Positions 2,308-50,046 of a DNA stretch of 64,000 bases are shown piece by piece. Source of the DNA: a bacterium (GTDB taxonomy: Bacteria > Patescibacteriota > CPR2 > UBA1875 > CAIMLA01); NCBI GenBank assembly GCA_037129835.1, contig JBAXUE010000001.1:174858-238857 (forward strand), read 5' to 3'. Position 1 is the stretch's first letter. Every line of letters starts with the position of its first letter. The translations under genes and the position numbers were made by a program. A model generated the notes under the pieces. The model made no database searches. It saw only the letters and a program-made list of their open reading frames with translations, and was not told the origin of the DNA.

Positions 2308-2892
2308 ATGGTTAAGAAGTTGATCATCGCAACACTTGTGGCAATACTCTTTGTAGTATTCCTTCCTTATGGAATCGCACTATACTTGTCGCCGCAAAAT
2401 ACTTTAGCAAAAAGTGATGCCATAGTAGTAGTCTCTGGTGGTGATACCGACGCCAGAATTTCCGAAGGTGTAAGACTCTATGAACAAGGGTGGTCAAAAA
2501 AAATTATTTTTTCTGGGGCTGCTGCAGAAGGAGATGTCTCAAACGCTTTAGCGATGAAGCATATAGCCATAGATAGTGGAATTCCAGAATTGGCGATAAT
2601 GGTTGAGGAAAACTCCAAGACTACTCTAGAAAATGCTCGATTCACTGCCCAGATAATCAAGAAAAATAATTATAAGAGTATTATTCTGGTTACATCGCCA
2701 TACCATCAAAGGCGAGCATATAGTTTATTTAGAACTGAACTAGGTGATAATTTCACTATTATTAATCATTCGGCAAAAGATACAAATTGGAGTAAACGAA
2801 ACTGGTGGGACAATAACGTCGCTCGTTTTTTAACATTTGGTGAAGTTTCAAAGCTTTTTGTAATATTTTTCCAGAGTTTGGGGAGTAACTAA
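2308..2892 (+). CDS. DUF218/YdcF(SanA/ElyC)-family envelope protein
   Basis: N-terminal TM segment, VVVSGGDTDARI...IIFSGAAAEG...LVTSPYHQRRA motif arrangement of the DUF218 family. Confidence 0.6.
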   Translation: MVKKLIIATLVAILFVVFLPYGIALYLSPQNTLAKSDAIVVVSGGDTDARISEGVRLYEQGWSKKIIFSGAAAEGDVSNALAMKHIAIDSGIPELAIMVEENSKTTLENARFTAQIIKKNNYKSIILVTSPYHQRRAYSLFRTELGDNFTIINHSAKDTNWSKRNWWDNNVARFLTFGEVSKLFVIFFQSLGSN

Positions 2893-3737
2893 TGAGAGAA
2901 AATGAGATATACGATAACGAAGGCCGTATTCTAAAAGCTGGTGGAATTATTATTAATAACAATAATGATATTTTGTTATATTTGAACGAAGATAGAGGAT
3001 TTGCATTCCCTAAAGGCCATTTGGAACAAGGTGAGACTTTCGAAGAGTGCGCGCACAGAGAAGTAAAAGAAGAAACAGGCTTAGATGTAGTGATTGTTGA
3101 TTATTTGTCACCAATTATCTATTTGAACCAGCACGATAACAAAGAAGTCTATATTGAGATGTTTCTAATGAAGCCATTGAATTTGGAACTTTCAACAGAG
3201 CTAAACGACGACACCCTACTGTGGGCAGATTATAATACTGCTGTTGTAAATTTGAAGCCCAATAATAAGCACCAGCATAATAGTCTTTCAGACTATTTGG
3301 TTAAAAATAAAGACAGTATATATAGAGAAAAGGTTCTTTCGGCCAACGGAGAAGTAATGAAGGCGGGAGCTTTGATTTATCGAGATTGTGGAAAAGAATT
3401 TTTACTAACCCATAGAATAAAAAGGGCGGATTATAGTTTCCCGAAGGGACATCTAGAAGCTGGTGAGTCATTTGAAGAAGCTGCAAAAAGAGAGATTATC
3501 GAAGAAACAGGCTGTGCCGTTAAAATTATCAAACCACTCGAAGATTTTAACTATGAATATCCCGAGTCTGGTAAAGTTTGTGTCAGGATGTTTTTAGCAG
3601 AGTGCGTGAGTCAAGGGGATAATCACGAATCATTTGAATCCCCGGTGTGGGTAAAGCGGGAAGAAGTAGAATCTACACTTACTTATGAAAATCTTAAAGA
3701 ATATTTTAAAGAGAATACAAAGGATCTTTTTTTATGA
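2892..3737 (+). CDS. Tandem-domain NUDIX hydrolase
   Basis: Two Nudix boxes: GHLEQGETFEECAHREVKEETGL and GHLEAGESFEEAAKREIIEETG. Confidence 0.75.
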   Translation: MRENEIYDNEGRILKAGGIIINNNNDILLYLNEDRGFAFPKGHLEQGETFEECAHREVKEETGLDVVIVDYLSPIIYLNQHDNKEVYIEMFLMKPLNLELSTELNDDTLLWADYNTAVVNLKPNNKHQHNSLSDYLVKNKDSIYREKVLSANGEVMKAGALIYRDCGKEFLLTHRIKRADYSFPKGHLEAGESFEEAAKREIIEETGCAVKIIKPLEDFNYEYPESGKVCVRMFLAECVSQGDNHESFESPVWVKREEVESTLTYENLKEYFKENTKDLFL

Positions 3738-4999
3738 AAATTGCAGTAGCTATGTCGGGTGGGGTCGATTCTTCTGTCGCTGCGGCATTGATGGTCGATA
3801 AATATGGTACACAAAATGTTTTCGGCGTGACTATGAAACTATTTTGTTATGGTGAAAGCGGCGGTAGCGATAAAAGTTGTTGTTCGTTAGACGCGATAGA
3901 CGATGCAGCTATGGTTTGCAAACAGCTTGGGATAAGTCACTATGTTGTAAATCTAGAAAAAGATTTTGAGGCAGAAATAATAGATAATTTTATTTCAGAA
4001 TATAGTCAAGGAAGGACCCCAAATCCCTGTGTGAGATGTAATAGTCTCATTAAATTCAAGCATTTATTACGAAAGGCACAGGAGCTGGGTGCTGATATTC
4101 TAGTTACGGGTCATTATGCTCGGATTCTCCCTTCTTTGTCATCCCTGGTAGTTAACCCAGGGATCTCTAGCGGCCCCTCTGACTTGTCTAGCGAAGCCTT
4201 GGTCATCGACTCTGAGGTGAGCCTCATCGCTCAGACTCGAAGGGCGAAGATGGAAGAAGATCCTCATTTTCGTAAGGATGACAACGTTTTGGGACTTTTC
4301 TGCGGTCTTGATTCCGCCAAGGATCAATCATATTTCCTTTACAATCTTGATCAATATCAGCTGGGCCACATTTGGTTCCCACTAGGGGAGCTCACAAAGC
4401 CGGAAACACGTAAATTGGCTGAGAAATATGCTCTTAAAACGGCTCAAAAGACAGAATCGCAGGACATTTGTTTTGTAACAACTACCACACAGGATTTTTT
4501 ATCCAATAAGATAAAGATAAAAGCGGGAAACATAGTAGATAAAGCCGGGAATGTACTCGGTAAACACGACGGGATACCTTTTTATACCATAGGACAGCGA
4601 AAAGGTCTCGGAGGAGGGTTTACAGAGCCAATGTATGTTACAGGGTTCGACCTTGTAAGAAATGATCTCGTCGTGGGAAGAGAAGAAGAACTATATGATG
4701 ATGAGATGATGGTGAGTGATATACATTGGACTTATGGAGCACCCGATTTACCCACTGAGATGGAAGTAAAGATTCGGTATAATTCTAAAGCGAGTTCCGC
4801 TTCACTAAATACTTCGAGCGAAGTTGAGAAGTCACGGTCTGATAGTTCTCGATCTGGCAACTGCCGGACTTCGAACAATAAAGTATTAATTAGATTCCAA
4901 AAACCTCAAAAGGCCATTACCCCTGGGCAAACTGCTGTTTTTTATATAAAAGAAGAGGTCGTTGGCGGAGGCATTATTGAGTCTACTAGAAAATATTGA
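3734..4999 (+). CDS. mnmA: tRNA-specific 2-thiouridylase MnmA carrying an in-frame ~50-aa insertion
   Basis: N-terminal PP-loop motif MKIAVAMSGGVDSSVAAALM, plus a CxxC motif, GHYAR, DQSYFLY and a C-terminal TPGQTAVFY. The protein is about 60 aa longer than typical MnmA because of two extra segments. Confidence 0.9.
   Translation: MKIAVAMSGGVDSSVAAALMVDKYGTQNVFGVTMKLFCYGESGGSDKSCCSLDAIDDAAMVCKQLGISHYVVNLEKDFEAEIIDNFISEYSQGRTPNPCVRCNSLIKFKHLLRKAQELGADILVTGHYARILPSLSSLVVNPGISSGPSDLSSEALVIDSEVSLIAQTRRAKMEEDPHFRKDDNVLGLFCGLDSAKDQSYFLYNLDQYQLGHIWFPLGELTKPETRKLAEKYALKTAQKTESQDICFVTTTTQDFLSNKIKIKAGNIVDKAGNVLGKHDGIPFYTIGQRKGLGGGFTEPMYVTGFDLVRNDLVVGREEELYDDEMMVSDIHWTYGAPDLPTEMEVKIRYNSKASSASLNTSSEVEKSRSDSSRSGNCRTSNNKVLIRFQKPQKAITPGQTAVFYIKEEVVGGGIIESTRKY
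4134..4285 (+). mobile_element. About 150-bp palindromic insertion element with 9-bp terminal inverted repeats (TTGTCATCC ... GGATGACAA), inserted in-frame in mnmA
   Basis: Terminal inverted repeats at 4135-4144 and 4277-4285. Inner hairpin ATCCCTGG-N7-CCCAGGGAT at 4141-4164, plus a second imperfect hairpin TCGACTCTGAG-N13-CTCAGACTCGA. It encodes LSSLVVNPGISSGPS...EEDPHFRKDDN, which is absent from MnmA homologues at the GHYAR/LDSxKDQSYFLY junction. A second copy lies at 16242-16318. Confidence 0.6.
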
Positions 5000-5035
5000 C
5001 TGTAATGATATAATAAAAGCACAGAAATGCAGTCT

Positions 5036-5066
5036 ATCAGGTTCTCTTACAGAGAGCCTGTTTTGA
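5036..5066 (+). terminator. Hairpin CAGGTTCTCT-tac-AGAGAGCCTG followed by TTTTG; putative mnmA terminator
   Basis: Inverted repeat with a T-run, 37 nt after the mnmA stop. Confidence 0.45.
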
Positions 5067-5108
5067 TAGATACGGTTCGTACCATTTATTCAGTAGGAGG
5101 TGAGTACA

Positions 5109-5372
5109 GTGAAGACTGTCCGCGAAAGAGCGCTTCCAGAAGAAGTGGTGGTAGAGGCTCTTAGTCTTACTACCGCTGAGTCAGCGAAGGTAAGTACGCT
5201 AGTGCGCTGGTTGCAGTGCAACAAAAAATGGCGTCGTGACCGAGACAACAAATTTTCTGAGAAGCAACTAGGGGACGCTCTACGTGCTACCGAAACGGAC
5301 TTTCCTGATTATGAGCGCCGAATGGTACTTATGAACAAGCTGCTGGTACTAGATCAGGAGCGAGGGGGATGA
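5109..5372 (+). CDS. Hypothetical protein in a GC-rich island (GTG start after AGGAGGTGAG)
   Basis: ORF of about 88 aa. RBS AGGAGG at 5094-5099. GC content is clearly above the flanks. No recognisable motif. Confidence 0.4.
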   Translation: MKTVRERALPEEVVVEALSLTTAESAKVSTLVRWLQCNKKWRRDRDNKFSEKQLGDALRATETDFPDYERRMVLMNKLLVLDQERGG

Positions 5373-5392
5373 TCTTCTTGTACGAAAAACTG

Positions 5393-5456
5393 AATCGGCG
5401 GACAAAAGTAGCCGCCTGAGGGTCGCAGTGCGCAAGTGCTAGCGACCCTCGTCCTT
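5393..5456 (+). terminator. Two consecutive GC hairpins (GGCGG-N9-CCGCC, then GAGGGTCGC-N15-GCGACCCTC) followed by TTTTATT
   Basis: Inverted repeats are directly visible, with a T-run after the second hairpin. Confidence 0.5.
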
Positions 5457-5457
5457 T

Positions 5458-5486
5458 TATTGACGAAACATACATTTGGGTATAAA
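5458..5486 (+). promoter_or_regulatory. Sigma70-like promoter TTGACG-17-TAAAAT upstream of the 5547 ORF
   Basis: The -35 and -10 hexamers are separated by 17 nt. They are followed by a GGAGG RBS before the ATG at 5547. Confidence 0.4.
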
Positions 5487-5546
5487 ATACATCACCGTAG
5501 TCGGAGGGCAGAAAGCTGCCAGCCATTATCTATCTGGAGGTATGAT

Positions 5547-5972
5547 ATGGGGATGTCACTGCGCGACAAAGTTCTAGACAGAGTACAGTCGGCCGTCTCG
5601 GCAAGATCGCCAGTAATCATTGCTTACGATTTTGTCAGCGCCTACGAAATCGCTATTGATAGTGGCGACAATGAAGGCGATGACCTTGCCTGTGCTGTCG
5701 GTACTGCTCTTGAGGAGTATTTACTAGAGAACAGTCCAGACTTCGCGGCGAATATCGCTGTGAGGGCGTACATCTCTGCAATCGACATCGGTGGGGATAC
5801 CGGAACAGAGATTTGCAATCAGCTCAGAGTCATCTATACACGCGCGTGTGAAAAGTCAGGGGAGTTTCTTGCTTCTCTGCATTACCACCAGAACGGAATC
5901 GGTGCTGACCTGGCATACTTGGGTCGGAATGGCTGTACGGTTCGACCAAAATTCGGTTTTGGCCGTTCCTAG
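5547..5972 (+). CDS. Hypothetical protein (about 141 aa) in the GC-rich island
   Basis: ATG preceded by CTGGAGGT. The listed ORF start at 5436 lacks an RBS. Acidic and Ala-rich. No recognisable domain. Confidence 0.45.
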   Translation: MGMSLRDKVLDRVQSAVSARSPVIIAYDFVSAYEIAIDSGDNEGDDLACAVGTALEEYLLENSPDFAANIAVRAYISAIDIGGDTGTEICNQLRVIYTRACEKSGEFLASLHYHQNGIGADLAYLGRNGCTVRPKFGFGRS

Positions 5973-6052
5973 CTCGACTACGGTAGGTGCCCCTTTTGGG
6001 GGCGCCTACCAAGAGCATTGAGAATAAGCTATATTTAAGATAATATATTGAT

Positions 6053-7948
6053 ATGAGAATAAACGAAGTAAGAGATAAATATATAAAGTTCTATATAGAT
6101 AGAGGACACACCGAGATTGAGTCTTCTTCTTTAATTCCCCAAAATGACCCTACGACACTGTTTACTGGTTCGGGCATGCAACAGCTTATGCCATTTTTGC
6201 TCGGGACATCACATCCTAAGGGGAATATGTTAGTCGATTCGCAAAAATGTTTTAGAGCTGACGATATCGATGAAATTGGGGACAATAGGCACACTACTTG
6301 CTTTGAAATGCTCGGAAATTGGTCACTTGGTGAATATTTTAAACAAGAGCAATTATCTTGGTTTTTTGAATTTATTACAAAAGAGCTTTTGCTCGACCCA
6401 AATCGTTTATATGTCTCTGTCTTTATCGGTGATAAAGCTAACAATATACCCAAAGATAATGAATCCGTCGACATTTGGCAGAAACTTTTTCAAGAAAAGG
6501 GGATCGAGGCAAAGGCAGTAGAGATTGGTTCTGAAGAAAACGGTTATTCTGTCGGCATGCAAGGCGGTCGAATTTTTTATTATGATTCAAAGAAAAATTG
6601 GTGGAGCCGTGCTGGAATCCCTTCCGAAATGCCTTCTGGTGAGCCAGGCGGTCCTGACAGCGAAATGTTCTATGAATTTACTGAGATTGAGCACGACAAA
6701 TCTTATGGGGAACATTGTCATCCAAATTGTGATTGTGGAAGGTTTATGGAGATAGGGAACTCGGTTTTCATGCAATATATTAAAAATACCGATGCAACTT
6801 TTGCACTTCTGCCAAAACAAAATGTGGATTTTGGCGGTGGTTTAGAGAGGCTTACAGCAGTCACCGAGGGACATTCAGATATATTTAAAACTGATATTTA
6901 TCAGAATATTATGGACAAGATTGCCGAAATAACAGGGAAAAAATACGCAGATGCAGATTTTGATACGATAAAGTCATTCCGTATCCTAGCAGATCATATC
7001 AAGGGAGCGACATTTATCATTGCAGATGGAATAAAGCCGTCAAATCTGGGGCAAGGATACGTAGTCCGTAGATTAGTAAGAAGAGCTATCCGGTACGCGC
7101 AGCTCGCTGATATTTTTGAGCAAAATATGTGTTCAGAAATCGCAAAAACGGTAATCGCAGATTATAAAGAGAATTATCCAGAGTTGGCAAAAGCCGAGAA
7201 TACAATCATTTCTGAGCTCAATATCGAGGAAAATAAATTTTTGAAGACTCTAGAGAGCGGACTTAAGGAGTTCGAGAGATTAACTAGAAGCAGGGACAGG
7301 CTTTCTGGCAAAGAAATATTTGAACTATTTGCTTCCCATGGCTTCCCTTTTGAGCTTACTAGGGAATTGGCCGATGAAAAAGGGATAACACTAGACGAGG
7401 TAGGCTATAAAATCGAGTTTGAGAAACATCAAGAGGTTTCCCGTGCAGGTATCCACGAAAAGAAATTTGCCAGTGGACTAGAGAACAAGGAAGACCCGAA
7501 AATTATTCAATATCATACCGCCGCACATCTGATGCTAGCGGCTCTAAAAAAAGTATTAGGCGAAGGTGTTCATCAGAAAGGTTCTAATATCACCGCTGAA
7601 CGTATCCGTTTTGATTTTTCCCACCCTGAAAAGATGACAGATGTAGATAAGAAGGCAGTTGAGGACTGGGTAAACGATAAGATATCTCAAAATCTTGAAG
7701 TATTTATGACTGAAACTAATCCAAAGACTGCTAAAGAAAAGGGCGCAGAAGGAGAATTTTCTGATAAATATGGCGATAAAGTTACTGTATATAGCATTGG
7801 AGGAGATATCGATAGTGCTGAAGCAGTTTCAAAAGAGATATGTACTGGACCTCATGTGAAGAATACTTCAGAGATTGGCCGCTTTAGAATAAAAAAAGAA
7901 GAGTCTTCTAGTTCTGGCGTACGGAGAATTAAAGCGATTTTAGAATAA
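6053..7948 (+). CDS. alaS: Alanyl-tRNA synthetase, short form lacking the C-Ala domain
   Basis: Class II core LIPQNDPTTLFTGSGMQQ. Editing-domain motifs HTAAHLMLAAL and CTGPHV. The protein ends at 631 aa, right after the editing domain. Confidence 0.9.
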   Translation: MRINEVRDKYIKFYIDRGHTEIESSSLIPQNDPTTLFTGSGMQQLMPFLLGTSHPKGNMLVDSQKCFRADDIDEIGDNRHTTCFEMLGNWSLGEYFKQEQLSWFFEFITKELLLDPNRLYVSVFIGDKANNIPKDNESVDIWQKLFQEKGIEAKAVEIGSEENGYSVGMQGGRIFYYDSKKNWWSRAGIPSEMPSGEPGGPDSEMFYEFTEIEHDKSYGEHCHPNCDCGRFMEIGNSVFMQYIKNTDATFALLPKQNVDFGGGLERLTAVTEGHSDIFKTDIYQNIMDKIAEITGKKYADADFDTIKSFRILADHIKGATFIIADGIKPSNLGQGYVVRRLVRRAIRYAQLADIFEQNMCSEIAKTVIADYKENYPELAKAENTIISELNIEENKFLKTLESGLKEFERLTRSRDRLSGKEIFELFASHGFPFELTRELADEKGITLDEVGYKIEFEKHQEVSRAGIHEKKFASGLENKEDPKIIQYHTAAHLMLAALKKVLGEGVHQKGSNITAERIRFDFSHPEKMTDVDKKAVEDWVNDKISQNLEVFMTETNPKTAKEKGAEGEFSDKYGDKVTVYSIGGDIDSAEAVSKEICTGPHVKNTSEIGRFRIKKEESSSSGVRRIKAILE

Positions 7949-7987: not shown

Positions 7988-8533
7988 CTAGTGATGGAAA
8001 ACAGGTTGTAGGGCTTTTGCCTTCTCACGTTTCTTTGGTGGTTCACCTAGCCTTCGAACGTAGCCGATAAGTAAGACGACGTACGTAAAGCCGACATTAC
8101 TCATTGCTAGGTATATCCAGTAGGCTTGGTTGCTGACGCCACTTGGTCTTAGGCCTAGAGATAGCACGGTGGCGAAGATTGGAATCGCGACTAAGGTCGC
8201 AAGAGCTCCCATCTTGTCAGACTGTGTTTCTCTGATAGTTCCTGTCGCTTCGCATTTGACTACGTCTAGTCGGCTGAGAACCAGGAGGACTACCGCAAGC
8301 GTAAGGAAAGGCCATAGTGCTCCTAGTCGGATAAGGACGCTGAAGGCTATACTACAAACCAAGAAGTAGAAACCGCCGAAGGCGATCATCCTTTTGAACG
8401 CTGGCGTGTAATCTTCGTCATCTTCGTTTAGAAACGTTGCAGCCAAAAGCTTACAAAAGTGCAGTATAGCTACATCGATATGAGTGAGTAGAGTCCCATC
8501 TTGTTGAAGAATGGGATCAAATTGACGGTACAT
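7988..8533 (-). CDS. Hypothetical integral membrane protein
   Basis: Several hydrophobic helices. Convergent with alaS. Slightly GC-richer than the flanks. Confidence 0.45.
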   Translation of the reverse strand: MYRQFDPILQQDGTLLTHIDVAILHFCKLLAATFLNEDDEDYTPAFKRMIAFGGFYFLVCSIAFSVLIRLGALWPFLTLAVVLLVLSRLDVVKCEATGTIRETQSDKMGALATLVAIPIFATVLSLGLRPSGVSNQAYWIYLAMSNVGFTYVVLLIGYVRRLGEPPKKREKAKALQPVFHH

Positions 8534-16816: not shown

Positions 16817-16892
16817 CGGGCCCTTAGCTCATCTGGTAGAGCGCGTCCATGGCATGGATGAGGTGGCAGGTTCGAGTCCTGTAGGGTCCACC
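16817..16892 (+). tRNA. tRNA-Ala (anticodon GGC), CCA encoded
   Basis: Cloverleaf folds manually. Acceptor GGGCCCT/AGGGTCC contains the G3:U70 Ala identity pair. Anticodon loop is ATGGCAT. Confidence 0.85.
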
Positions 16893-46335: not shown

Positions 46336-46342
46336 ATGGGCT

Positions 46343-46370
46343 GAGGCCAGAATGCAAGCATTCTGGCCTC
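46343..46370. terminator. Hairpin GAGGCCAGAATGC-aa-GCATTCTGGCCTC after uvrB
   Basis: Perfect 13-bp inverted repeat. Confidence 0.5.
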
Positions 46371-46379
46371 ATAAATCTC

Positions 46380-46760
46380 GCCATTGATGGGGGTACTAGT
46401 TCGCGGAAACTCTTGGAAATGCAGCATTTGCAGCAGTGATGAGGTGGTTTGCAAGAGCGCGATTGCTGCTAGAGTACTTTCTGGCAGTTTCCTGCGGCGT
46501 TGTGCCTACGAACTTGTCGCATGAGGAGCCCTTGGGTAAGTGGTTATTGCGACAGTTTGTTTGAAGTCTGTTAGCCAGAGCGTACTCCGCCGTACCTTCT
46601 TCGCAGTTGCAAAGAAAGATAGAACACAATCCAGCTTTTGTACAGATCATCCGGGCACCCCCTTTCGTGGGGTTGCTTTGAGGGATAGAACTTGACACAA
46701 AAAAAGAGAGCTATAAACACCAGCCTTGTTGGCTAGGGTTACTCTCTTTGTGTATTCGTA
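46380..46760. other. GC-rich non-coding island (candidate structured ncRNA; identity unresolved) ending in a minus-strand terminator-like hairpin AGAGAG-N-CTCTCT + T7
   Basis: No plus-strand ORF. Only weak minus-strand ORFs. GC is clearly above the genome average. Conserved RNase P (GGAAAGUCCGG, ACAGAANCCGGCUUA) and tmRNA landmarks were sought by eye and not convincingly found. Confidence 0.3.
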
Positions 46761-46829
46761 TCACATGTCTATTATAATACAGCAAGTCAAAAATAGGAAT
46801 AATTAGGCCTCTTGGGGCGCGTAAAAGCC

Positions 46830-46858
46830 TTGAAATATCTTGACATCCGCTGTAGAAT
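46830..46858 (+). promoter_or_regulatory. Sigma70-like promoter TTGAAA-17-TAGAAT for uvrA
   Basis: Hexamers with 17-nt spacing, 39 nt upstream of the uvrA ATG. RBS GAGGTGAGG. Confidence 0.45.
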
Positions 46859-46896
46859 GGAGGAGTTCTATCGCTAATTTTTGAGGTGAGGTCAAG

Positions 46897-49764: not shown

Positions 49765-50046
49765 GTGACAATCGTGGTAATACTGAGAAACCCATCAGAC
49801 TACAAAACAATGTCAACGGTTGAGCTTAGGTCGGAGAAGAGAATTCTTGAGATGATAATCTATATCGAGGATTTCTTCTATATAGACAATCTCAAGAAAA
49901 CCGTGGCCGAAGGTGGCACAGAGATTATAAATGTGTTACCTCGCGGATATCTATCACGAGTGCTCATGGCATCTCGGATCGTTAAAGGCGCCAATAGCAG
50001 AGTCGATATAATCGAACTTGAGCTCGCGCGGCGGGCAGACCCTTAG
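49765..50046 (+). CDS. Hypothetical small protein (about 78-93 aa)
   Basis: ORF between uvrA and uvrC. No recognisable motif. Confidence 0.35.
   Translation: MTIVVILRNPSDYKTMSTVELRSEKRILEMIIYIEDFFYIDNLKKTVAEGGTEIINVLPRGYLSRVLMASRIVKGANSRVDIIELELARRADP

Follow-up and report, generated by a model that had tools for sequence, protein, structure and literature searches.

A GC-rich island between mnmA and alaS in a Patescibacteria genome, probably one lineage's form of an old accessory-gene slot

A kilobase of foreign-looking DNA lies between mnmA and alaS in the stretch of patescibacterial genome analysed here (64,000 nucleotides, hereafter the window). Is it a recent insertion, or does it belong to this site? 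The island, positions 5036-6020, has a GC content of 0.50, where the window as a whole averages 0.389 (z=3.6); no other 985-nt segment of the 64 kb is as high. It contains two small open reading frames, ORF1 and ORF2 (Table 1). A sequence-only reading had seen this jump, placing the surrounding GC slightly too low at ~37%, and had proposed a horizontally acquired, self-contained cassette with an addiction or defence function. We retain the atypical composition, the self-contained genes and a content that varies by lineage; the recent insertion and the addiction or defence role are not borne out. With a probability of about 0.68, the island is instead the local version of an old mnmA-alaS accessory-gene slot, in which the frame is conserved and the cargo differs between subclades.

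Table 1. Features of the mnmA-alaS slot in the window. Promoters and terminators are predicted from sequence.
Feature	Position	Strand	Details
mnmA (tRNA 2-thiouridylase)	3734..4999	+	Pfam tRNA_Me_trans 1.4e-68; bounds the slot upstream
Promoter-like site TAGAAA-16-TGaTATAAT, extended -10, over the mnmA stop codon	4987..5014	+	within block 4993-5033, identical in L001
Hairpin A	core 5038-5060, extended 5032-5071	+	-18.3 kcal/mol, z -4.5; followed by TTTT
ORF1, 87 aa, GTG start	5109..5372	+	Shine-Dalgarno AGGAGG at 5095-5100
Tandem-hairpin element	5396..5463; H1 5397-5416, H2 5417-5451, T-run 5455-5458	+	-33.9 kcal/mol, z -4.9
ORF2 promoter TTGACG-17-TAAAAT (predicted)	5460..5488	+	in L001, boxes kept, spacer with 5 changes
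ORF2, 141 aa, ATG start	5547..5972	+	Shine-Dalgarno GGAGG at 5536-5540
Hairpin C, GGTAGGTGCCCC-TTTTG-GGGGCGCCTACC	5982..6010	+	-31.3 kcal/mol, z -6.2; without U-tract
alaS promoter TTGAGA-17-TAATAT (predicted)	6018..6046	+	6 nt from the end of the -10 box to the alaS ATG
alaS, short form, 631 aa	6053..7948	+	Pfam tRNA-synt_2c 3.4e-118; downstream border of the slot

Pfam identifies the two flanking genes as they had been named before, and the neighbourhood of the slot reads nudix, mnmA, alaS, membrane protein, ftsA. Within it, both ORFs depart from the habits of the genome. Given their amino-acid sequences, their GC3 lies above genome codon usage by +2.6 (ORF1) and +5.0 (ORF2) standard deviations, so that the proposed check of GC content and codon usage finds both genes atypical. 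Most genes of this genome have no Shine-Dalgarno sequence; ORF1 and ORF2 have strong ones and are among the 8 of 51 crude gene calls with such a site upstream. In composition as in translation, the pair is atypical for the genome and looks foreign. High-expression codon bias was considered as the cause of the high GC3 and rejected on thin evidence, the gene of ribosomal protein S16 having a GC3 of 0.29. No paralogues or repeated DNA were found elsewhere in the 64 kb.

A bias of substitutions towards third codon positions and dN/dS ratios of 0.07-0.15 identify both ORFs as real genes under purifying selection. Compared with sister lineage L001, the substitutions in ORF1 are distributed 6/4/20 over the three codon positions (p=5e-4; dN/dS 0.07); for ORF2 the distribution is 13/12/41 (p=4e-6; dN/dS 0.08-0.15). 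One might still suspect spurious ORFs in a structured non-coding RNA region, since RNA genes often account for GC-rich islands in AT-rich genomes and the hairpins here are strong. The codon-position pattern already refutes this, and the low dN/dS, the strong Shine-Dalgarno sites and the confident AlphaFold2 models of both proteins argue in the same direction. Rfam, run on the window and three relatives with gathering and E-value thresholds, returned nothing, apart from a chance-level ncS54 match at E<=1; we leave this explanation next to no probability.

The product of ORF1, earlier put at about 88 residues, has 87 from its GTG start, is basic (pI 8.9) and is modelled by AlphaFold2 as a small helical bundle (pLDDT 89.8). 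That of ORF2 is acidic (pI 4.7) and Ala/Gly-rich, with the length read before. Its model is an all-helical repeat protein of 7 helices (pLDDT 84.6), with an internal duplication relating residues 21-47 to residues 63-89 (p=0.002).

Neither protein belongs to a recognised family, in agreement with the sequence-only reading: Pfam, PHROGs, PADLOC and NCBIfam gave zero matches, PADLOC-DB 2.0 at E<=1 gave 0 families for either ORF, and a sequence search of the PDB nothing usable. The structural matches of both models are generic helical proteins. The fold and the internal duplication of ORF2 fit alpha-helical repeat proteins (TPR, HEAT, designed), but no Pfam repeat profile matches it even at E<=1, and the identities are 7-21%, with matches such as any helical hairpin array would give. 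A match to PDB 7rdr, a designed protein, proved to be a summed repeat artefact. Among 5.8 billion proteins, homologues of ORF1 and ORF2 occur in sister lineages only. ORF2 is found there in just three clusters and, against 1.84 billion representative proteins, matches itself only; the sole homologue of ORF1 found in a word-indexed database search comes from a sister lineage and is 92% identical. Viral-contig scans revealed no relatives of either ORF, and no donor-lineage or mobile-element homologue appeared in the 5.8 billion proteins or the viral contigs. Our best guess is that the two proteins may be small protein- or nucleic-acid-binding adaptors, accessory and of fast turnover.

Each gene also appears to have its own control signals, as had been proposed. 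The bounding and internal hairpins described before are all present and have, by eye, near-perfect GC stems. A T-run follows two of the three: hairpin A runs into TTTT and H2 into TTTTATT, but hairpin C, earlier taken for a terminator, has no U-tract. In lineages L009, L168 and L170 the tract that follows H2 is interrupted. Promoter-like sites as a class are only slightly above chance (8 found, 3.8 +/- 2.0 expected), so the support for the promoters rests on their conservation.

At the upstream border, hairpin A is predicted to terminate mnmA transcription, to form a stem-loop in the leader of ORF1, or both. For ORF1 there is a single good promoter-like site, the one over the mnmA stop codon; it lies upstream of hairpin A, and the hairpin would consequently be part of that leader. 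Its stem is kept in L001 via G-U/A-U changes, and analogous CAGG...CCTGTTT hairpins exist in L008 and L009. A TTGACy-N7-TATAAT motif also lies over the mnmA stop codon in L008, L009, L065 and L170.

The tandem-hairpin element, a predicted terminator of ORF1, is the best-conserved part of the island. A covariance model, R1, scores 71.5 bits on it. Each close relative has a single R1 hit in its slot, including L090, on which the model was not trained (E=1.6e-8); a second copy was not found in the 64 kb. RNAalifold reports compensatory changes in 5 of its 14 pairs. By blastn, the inter-ORF element is similar between the window and L170 (E=4.5e-5) and between L008 and L089 (E=4e-8), and shuffle tests give p=0.001-0.003. 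The 174-nt spacer between the ORFs holds this conserved, predicted terminator together with the conserved promoter that had been reported before ORF2 and whose boxes are indeed kept in L001. From this arrangement we infer that ORF1 and ORF2 would be two separate transcription units.

At the downstream border, hairpin C is predicted to insulate the slot from alaS. Hairpins with a GGCGCC core and covarying outer stems occupy the same position in L008, L089 and L168, and both H1 and hairpin C covary across lineages. The alaS promoter has a leaderless-type layout, judged by the distance of 6 nt between its -10 box and the ATG and by the lack of a Shine-Dalgarno sequence. The layout TTGAGATAAG...TAAAAT-6 nt-ATG recurs in L008, L009, L089 and L168, and the alaS promoter regions of L008 and L089 match by blastn with E=1.5e-13.

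How old, then, is the island? The comparison set comprises about ten lineages, all MAGs or metagenome contigs. The gene order mnmA-ORF1-ORF2-alaS-TM181-ftsA is common to lineages L001-L007. Three sister lineages have the island at the same site, with a dS for ORF1 and ORF2 (0.51-0.57) like that of the flanking genes (0.51-0.75); the pair would have been inherited vertically at least since these lineages split. Relatives at ~70% AlaS identity keep the slot, its raised GC and a homologous non-coding scaffold, found across genera: the tandem-hairpin element, the GGCGCC-core hairpin and the leaderless-type alaS promoter. In L008 (AlaS 70%) the slot contains ORFs of 78 and 129 aa at a GC of 0.57-0.60, against 0.46 for the genome, and its promoter, hairpins, Shine-Dalgarno sites and terminator follow the order of the window. 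The same frame is found in L009, L089, L090, L168 and L170; L089 has proteins of 62, 75 and 67 aa, and L168 one of 156 aa. For the outer spacers, the comparison of the window with L008 gives p=0.06 for IG1 (promoter and hairpin A) and p=0.15 for IG3 (hairpin C and alaS promoter), neither significant alone.

The sequence-only reading had suggested that adjacent mnmA and alaS in relatives would confirm an insertion, and that an island of conserved position and composition in distant relatives would refute it. Adjacency exists only in two distant Patescibacteria, L041 (gap of 40 nt) and L103 (27 nt); the slot is occupied in L001-L007, L008, L009, L089, L090, L168 and L170, and the relatives at ~70% AlaS identity largely show the refuting pattern. 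Composition deviates as in a genomic island, but no sister genome has an empty site. Mobility genes, flanking direct repeats and a tRNA target are absent from the slot, the nearest tRNA being at 16818. Boundary repeats were considered as att sites and set aside: they are matches of only 9-10 nt, at chance level. On these comparisons the island is not a recent insertion. Raised GC has characterised the slot for a long time and is no sign of fresh import; it might come from repeated recombination or replacement at the site, or from selection. Amelioration of ORF2 over three lineages, with 45 GC->AT and 33 AT->GC changes, is not decisive.

We therefore describe the island as one state of a slot that appears to be spread across a Patescibacteria clade of Saccharibacteria-like MAGs. 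Its conserved frame begins with a predicted promoter over the mnmA stop codon, followed by a stem-loop, a first small ORF and the tandem-hairpin terminator element. It continues with a second promoter, zero to three further small ORFs, the GGCGCC-core GC hairpin and, last, the alaS promoter of leaderless type. The cargo in the window, a basic helical bundle and an acidic helical-repeat protein, is made up of genuine proteins of the cytoplasm, with strong Shine-Dalgarno sites for their translation and apparently two transcripts.

Within the conserved scaffold the small ORFs differ between subclades. ORF1 and ORF2 have no significant protein or DNA similarity to the ORFs of L008, L089, L168, L038 or L065, and tblastx found no frameshifted descent between slots. 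Among relatives the second position holds 0 to 3 ORFs; L009 keeps the first gene and has this position empty. We infer replacement of the ORFs rather than extreme divergence. In the latter reading, which we consider unlikely, the slot would be equally old, and same-position ORFs would be orthologues that diverged beyond recognition in fast episodes while the hairpins were constrained. Relatives do share the order, the strand, the sizes (78-87 aa, then 129-156 aa) and the charge pattern, basic first and acidic second. Between sister lineages, ORF2 evolves ~2.6x faster than AlaS at the protein level (dN 0.085 vs 0.033). Along its whole length, ORF1 can be aligned with the 78-aa family of relatives at 26-33% identity and nominal p values of 0.016-0.04 (33% identity over 67 columns by hhalign; p=0.019 in an HMM shuffle test and p=0.016 for the global alignment), so at least the first ORF may be a strongly diverged orthologue and not a replacement. 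Taken as a test of homology with the same-position ORFs, however, BLASTP, hhalign, HMM and shuffle comparisons yield nothing for ORF2 and only nominal values for ORF1 (p ~0.02-0.04). At the measured dN, which for ORF1 (0.036) is close to that of AlaS (0.033), the identity expected at the distance of L008 is ~60% for ORF1 and ~35-40% for ORF2, but ORF2 has no detectable similarity (p=0.69). The 78-aa family is itself well conserved, being 72% identical between L008 and L168, whose MnmA is 63% identical, and this argues against uniformly fast drift. The varying number of second-position ORFs also speaks for replacement.

Replacement at an old slot also has to be weighed against readings in which the island is, or was, mobile. 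Many defence genes are unannotated orphans, and ORF1 and ORF2 resemble a type II toxin-antitoxin pair in being small, adjacent, on one strand, lineage-specific, and basic and acidic, respectively. A horizontally acquired addiction or anti-phage defence cassette would further account for the atypical GC and codon usage, the lineage-variable content of the slot and the adjacency of mnmA and alaS in L041 and L103. Yet the pair would not be an operon: a conserved, predicted terminator and a promoter for ORF2 alone separate the genes and, with apparently two transcription units, the layout does not look toxin-antitoxin-like. Neither protein matches a toxin or antitoxin family, nor shows a domain of the toxin-antitoxin superfamilies (RHH, HTH and AbrB antitoxin domains included), and the defence, phage and general family databases and the viral contigs are equally silent. 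The genes are single-copy, in a fixed chromosomal position and under purifying selection, and the second may be absent, as in L009. With neither mobility genes nor direct repeats or att-like borders, a dS equal to that of the flanking genes in a cassette common to three sister lineages, and a scaffold and GC excess conserved in different genera, such a module is very unlikely. Still more improbable is an integron-like array, in which the GC-rich hairpins would be attC-like sites exchanging single-ORF cassettes. Its appeal lies in the conserved, imperfect hairpins that separate variable single-ORF units, and in L008 and L009, whose difference is precisely that one has the second unit and the other lacks it. 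Against this, no integrase or recombinase adjoins the slot among six Pfam-annotated neighbours, and each unit has its own predicted promoter, whereas integron cassettes are usually promoterless. Hairpin A, the tandem hairpins (B) and hairpin C differ from one another and resemble ordinary terminators, attC-type core sites were not seen by eye, and the tandem-hairpin element is single-copy in the 64 kb.

A bolder version of the slot reading makes the hairpin and promoter frame a dedicated exchange-and-expression platform, where related Patescibacteria would swap single small-gene cassettes by recombination at the tandem-hairpin element and the GGCGCC hairpin without a linked integrase. We regard this as quite unlikely. 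If true, reduced genomes would have here a set place for accessory genes of fast turnover, serving for instance in phage or host-interaction conflicts, and frequent recombination would, through GC-biased gene conversion, produce the persistent GC excess as a side effect. Should the cargo truly be exchanged at the hairpin elements, a simple, testable model of accessory-gene renewal in reduced genomes would follow.

Patescibacteria have tiny genomes with a large share of small unannotated genes, and two such orphans are shown here to be genuine genes under selection. What looks like a foreign GC island can belong to a clade of old, at a fixed position, which calls for caution in composition-based island calling. 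It is unusual that non-coding elements remain recognisably homologous between genera and the protein genes that they frame do not. The practical importance is limited for now, and a literature search on GC islands in Saccharibacteria retrieved nothing specific. The nearest parallel is with flexible genomic islets, hotspots on the chromosome where conserved core genes flank accessory ones: here too, linked core genes (mnmA and alaS) enclose a variable spacer with lineage-specific genes of atypical composition. The slot differs in having a non-coding frame that is homologous between genera when its ORFs are not, and borders free of mobility genes, tRNA or repeats. Across the phylum, the mnmA-alaS spacer ranges from 27 nt to >3 kb and harbours lineage-specific genes of atypical composition.

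Sequence comparison best supports reading the GC-rich island between mnmA and alaS as a slot for accessory genes that is old, shared across a clade and set in a conserved regulatory frame. In the window it carries ORF1 and ORF2, which encode two small proteins predicted to be helical and would be transcribed independently. The window has 39% GC and is a piece of a Patescibacteria (CPR) MAG; its closest species representatives bear the labels Candidatus Saccharibacteria or Patescibacteria group. As the sequence-only reading held, the island (5036-6020) stands out: it has 50% GC, no other stretch of 985 nt in the 64 kb is as GC-rich (z = 3.6), and a predicted promoter precedes the second ORF. 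The hairpins described there exist at all three sites and fold far more stably than shuffled sequence, but the last of them, taken for a terminator, has no U-tract. A perfect 10-nt inverted repeat flanks the predicted ORF2 transcript and is kept, with one G-U change, in the sister-lineage contig L001; it may be meaningless, as chance alone would give ~0.75 repeats of this kind in the region.

Features of the mnmA-alaS region and other sites (window coordinates unless a locus is named)
Feature	Position	Properties
mnmA	3734-4999	upstream flank (Pfam); 421 aa, Ser-rich insertion (relatives 351-383 aa)
Hairpin A	5038-5060	fold versus shuffled, z = -4.5
ORF1	5109-5372	GTG start, 87 aa, pI 8.9; AGGAGG 8 nt upstream
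Two tandem hairpins	5397-5451	fold versus shuffled, z = -4.9
Predicted promoter	5460-5488	TTGACG-17-TAAAAT
Inverted repeat	5494-5503, 5975-5984	ACCGTAGTCG / CGACTACGGT
ORF2	5547-5972	ATG start, 141 aa, pI 4.7; GGAGG 6 nt upstream
Hairpin C	5982-6010	fold versus shuffled, z = -6.2
Pre-alaS layout	6041-6055	TAATAT/TAAAAT -10 box, ends 6 nt before ATG
alaS	6053-7948	downstream flank (Pfam); short, 631 aa, last domain tRNA_SAD
Membrane-like ORF (-)	7988-8533	between alaS and ftsA; 181 aa, GC 0.47, GC3 z = +4.0, strong Shine-Dalgarno site
uvrB-uvrA spacer	46336-46896	560 nt; ~50% GC at 46400-46700
Small ORF (+)	49765-50046	between uvrA and uvrC; 93 aa, no Pfam match, GC3 0.50 (z = +3.8)
L089, tandem paralogues	3461-3909	75 and 67 aa, E = 1e-7
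L090, small ORF	2543-2746	67 aa, by eye similar to the L089 pair
L090, Cys-rich ORF	2888-3937	349 aa, CxxxCxxC close to N-terminus
L168, alaS	4150-6033	AlaS 50-55% identical to that of L008, L089 and window

Neither protein has a match in Pfam, PHROGs, PADLOC or NCBIfam, in keeping with the earlier impression that they belong to no recognised family; the NCBI entry for the ORF2 product reads 'MAG: hypothetical protein WCP14_01015 [bacterium]'. Among 5.8 billion protein clusters, ORF1 finds only one cluster (92% identity) and ORF2 only itself and two clusters at 84% identity. An exhaustive profile search with the ORF2 alignment against 1.84 billion representatives returned nothing beyond ORF2 itself. 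The contigs holding these homologues, L001-L007, align colinearly with the window (87% DNA identity) and share the order mnmA-ORF1-ORF2-alaS-membrane protein-ftsA. Between the window and L001, substitutions at the three codon positions number 6/4/20 in ORF1 (p = 5e-4) and 13/12/41 in ORF2 (p = 4e-6), with dN/dS of 0.07 and 0.08-0.15, respectively. From this third-position bias and low dN/dS, both are therefore protein-coding and under purifying selection: they are real genes, predating the split of three sister lineages. Their dS (0.51-0.57) is as in alaS, ftsA and other neighbours (0.51-0.75). A non-coding reading of the island is excluded by the codon-position pattern; an Rfam scan of the island found no RNA family.

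We compared loci around alaS relatives taken from species-representative genomes and metagenomes. In Patescibacteria mnmA and alaS are widely linked, but the spacer between them can be as short as 27 nt (L103) or 40 nt (L041) and as long as >3 kb. Near-adjacency of the two genes, which the sequence-only reading would have taken as confirming an insertion, is thus found in two distant relatives, but throughout the clade nearest to the window (AlaS ~70%, MnmA 58-72% identical) small same-strand ORFs always fill the slot. Its GC there is usually above that of the genome: 0.555 in the slot against 0.46 in the locus for L008, 0.55 against 0.47 for L009, 0.54 against 0.45 for L168 and 0.51 against 0.455 for L089. 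The relatives repeat the window's layout in eight ordered parts: a TTGACy-N7-TATAAT motif across the mnmA stop codon (absent in L089, where the first ORF directly follows mnmA); a hairpin of CAGG...CCTGTTT type; a Shine-Dalgarno site and first small ORF; a tandem hairpin pair ending in ...GGCCCTCGTCC; a promoter; further ORF(s), again preceded by a Shine-Dalgarno site; a GC hairpin built on a GGCGCC core; and a TTGAGATAAG...TAAAAT promoter, in which 6 nt separate the end of the -10 box from the alaS ATG. Judged by these relatives, the island is evidently not a recent insertion.

The inter-ORF element aligns by blastn between L008 and L089 (E = 4e-8) and between the window and L170 (E = 4.5e-5), and when the window is compared with L008 and L009, shuffle tests yield p = 0.001-0.003; non-equivalent spacer pairs were mostly unremarkable, with one at p = 0.017. 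A covariance model trained on seven copies finds exactly one copy per slot, including an untrained one in L090/L091 (44 bits, E = 1.6e-8). The 64-kb window yields no further copy, and 42 sources (0.46 Mb in total) gave no other hit. In the second hairpin of the pair, RNAalifold predicts 14 pairs, five of them with compensatory changes. The first keeps its structure while the stems vary (GGCGG/CCGCC, GGGTGAC/GTCACCT, GTGGC/GCCAC, GCGGC/GCCGC), and in hairpin C the GGCGCC core is constant while the outer stems covary. These patterns argue that the non-coding frame is homologous between lineages.

The cargo differs. ORF2 has no similarity to any second-position ORF of the relatives: a 129-aa ORF in L008, nothing in L009, a 156-aa ORF and a possible short one (~50 aa) in L168, two paralogous ORFs in L089, and small ORFs with a large Cys-rich one in L090. 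The first position holds three unrelated-looking families, namely ORF1, a 78-aa family (L008, L009, L168, L170) and a 62-84-aa protein (L089, L090). A homologous frame around non-matching proteins favours replacement of cargo inside it. For the first ORF, strong divergence is a live alternative: ORF1 aligns with the 78-aa family over its full length at 26-33% identity, although the support is only nominal (hhalign P = 0.33; p = 0.016-0.04 in shuffle tests). Yet L008 and L168 share 72% identity in that family against only 63% in MnmA, so fast evolution is not intrinsic to the first position. The L168 locus differs further in its alaS, which is followed by greA, not ftsA; its AlaS is only 50-55% identical to those of L008, L089 and the window, although MnmA (58-66%) and the 78-aa protein (72%) put L168 at a comparable or shorter distance, and its alaS may reflect replacement or rearrangement.

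Codon usage bears out the atypical composition. GC3 is 0.48 in ORF1 (z = +2.6) and 0.51 in ORF2 (z = +5.0), where the encoded amino acids and codon usage in the window would predict 0.35 and 0.32; amino-acid composition accounts for ~40% of the GC excess and synonymous choice for ~60%. Both L008 slot ORFs have a GC3 of 0.70. ORF1 and ORF2 have strong Shine-Dalgarno sites, a feature of just 8 among the window's 51 crude gene calls; many genes there show a -10 box just upstream of the (crudely called) start. Two other small unannotated genes, the membrane-like ORF after alaS and the ORF between uvrA and uvrC, share the codon bias; the S16 ribosomal protein gene does not. Because it is present in several genera, the GC excess is long-standing. 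ORF2 changes across the three lineages (45 GC->AT, 33 AT->GC) suggest at most mild drift toward genome composition; repeated import, recombination-linked GC-biased conversion or selection could each be the source.

AlphaFold2, despite very shallow alignments, predicts all-helical folds with confidence for ORF1 (pLDDT 89.8; two short and three long helices) and ORF2 (pLDDT 84.6; seven helices). ORF2 also carries an internal duplication of residues 21-47 (SPVIIAYDFVSAYEIAIDSGDNEGDDL) and 63-89 (SPDFAANIAVRAYISAIDIGGDTGTEI; p = 0.002), and model and duplication together make it a predicted small helical-repeat protein. Such folds are typical of binding or scaffolding proteins and diagnostic of no function. 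No hydrophobic segments were found in either protein, nor paralogues within the 64-kb window.

A recently acquired foreign cassette gives way before the gene order of L001-L007, dS values like those of the flanks, and a slot and GC excess recurring in other genera. A toxin-antitoxin or defence cassette, as the sequence-only reading proposed, fails the tests that could be run: ORF1 and ORF2 apparently form no operon, match no family or defence model and have no mobile-element links, the island's position is conserved, and L009 does without the second gene. An integron-like cassette array would fit the conserved hairpins that surround variable ORFs, but none of the six Pfam-annotated neighbours is an integrase and each unit carries a predicted promoter of its own. 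The island is a real and somewhat unusual finding; it is not a recent foreign cassette, and no addiction or defence module can be recognised in it. Variable accessory slots between core genes are known, and the island is of the same kind; peculiar here is a non-coding frame that outlasts its genes.

The alaS gene has no Shine-Dalgarno site, which together with its -10 box layout suggests a leaderless mRNA; the layout recurs in L008, L009, L038, L065, L089 and L168. The membrane-like ORF beyond it has a counterpart in the sister lineage (dN/dS 0.08) and is missing from L008, L009 and L089, where ftsA directly follows alaS: it is a second lineage-specific GC-rich gene adjoining alaS. The uvrB-uvrA spacer, with no convincing ORF and no Rfam match at E<=1, folds more stably than shuffled sequence whichever strand is taken (z = -3.0 and -4.2). 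A perfect 13-bp hairpin stands at its start, and it may be an undescribed non-coding RNA.
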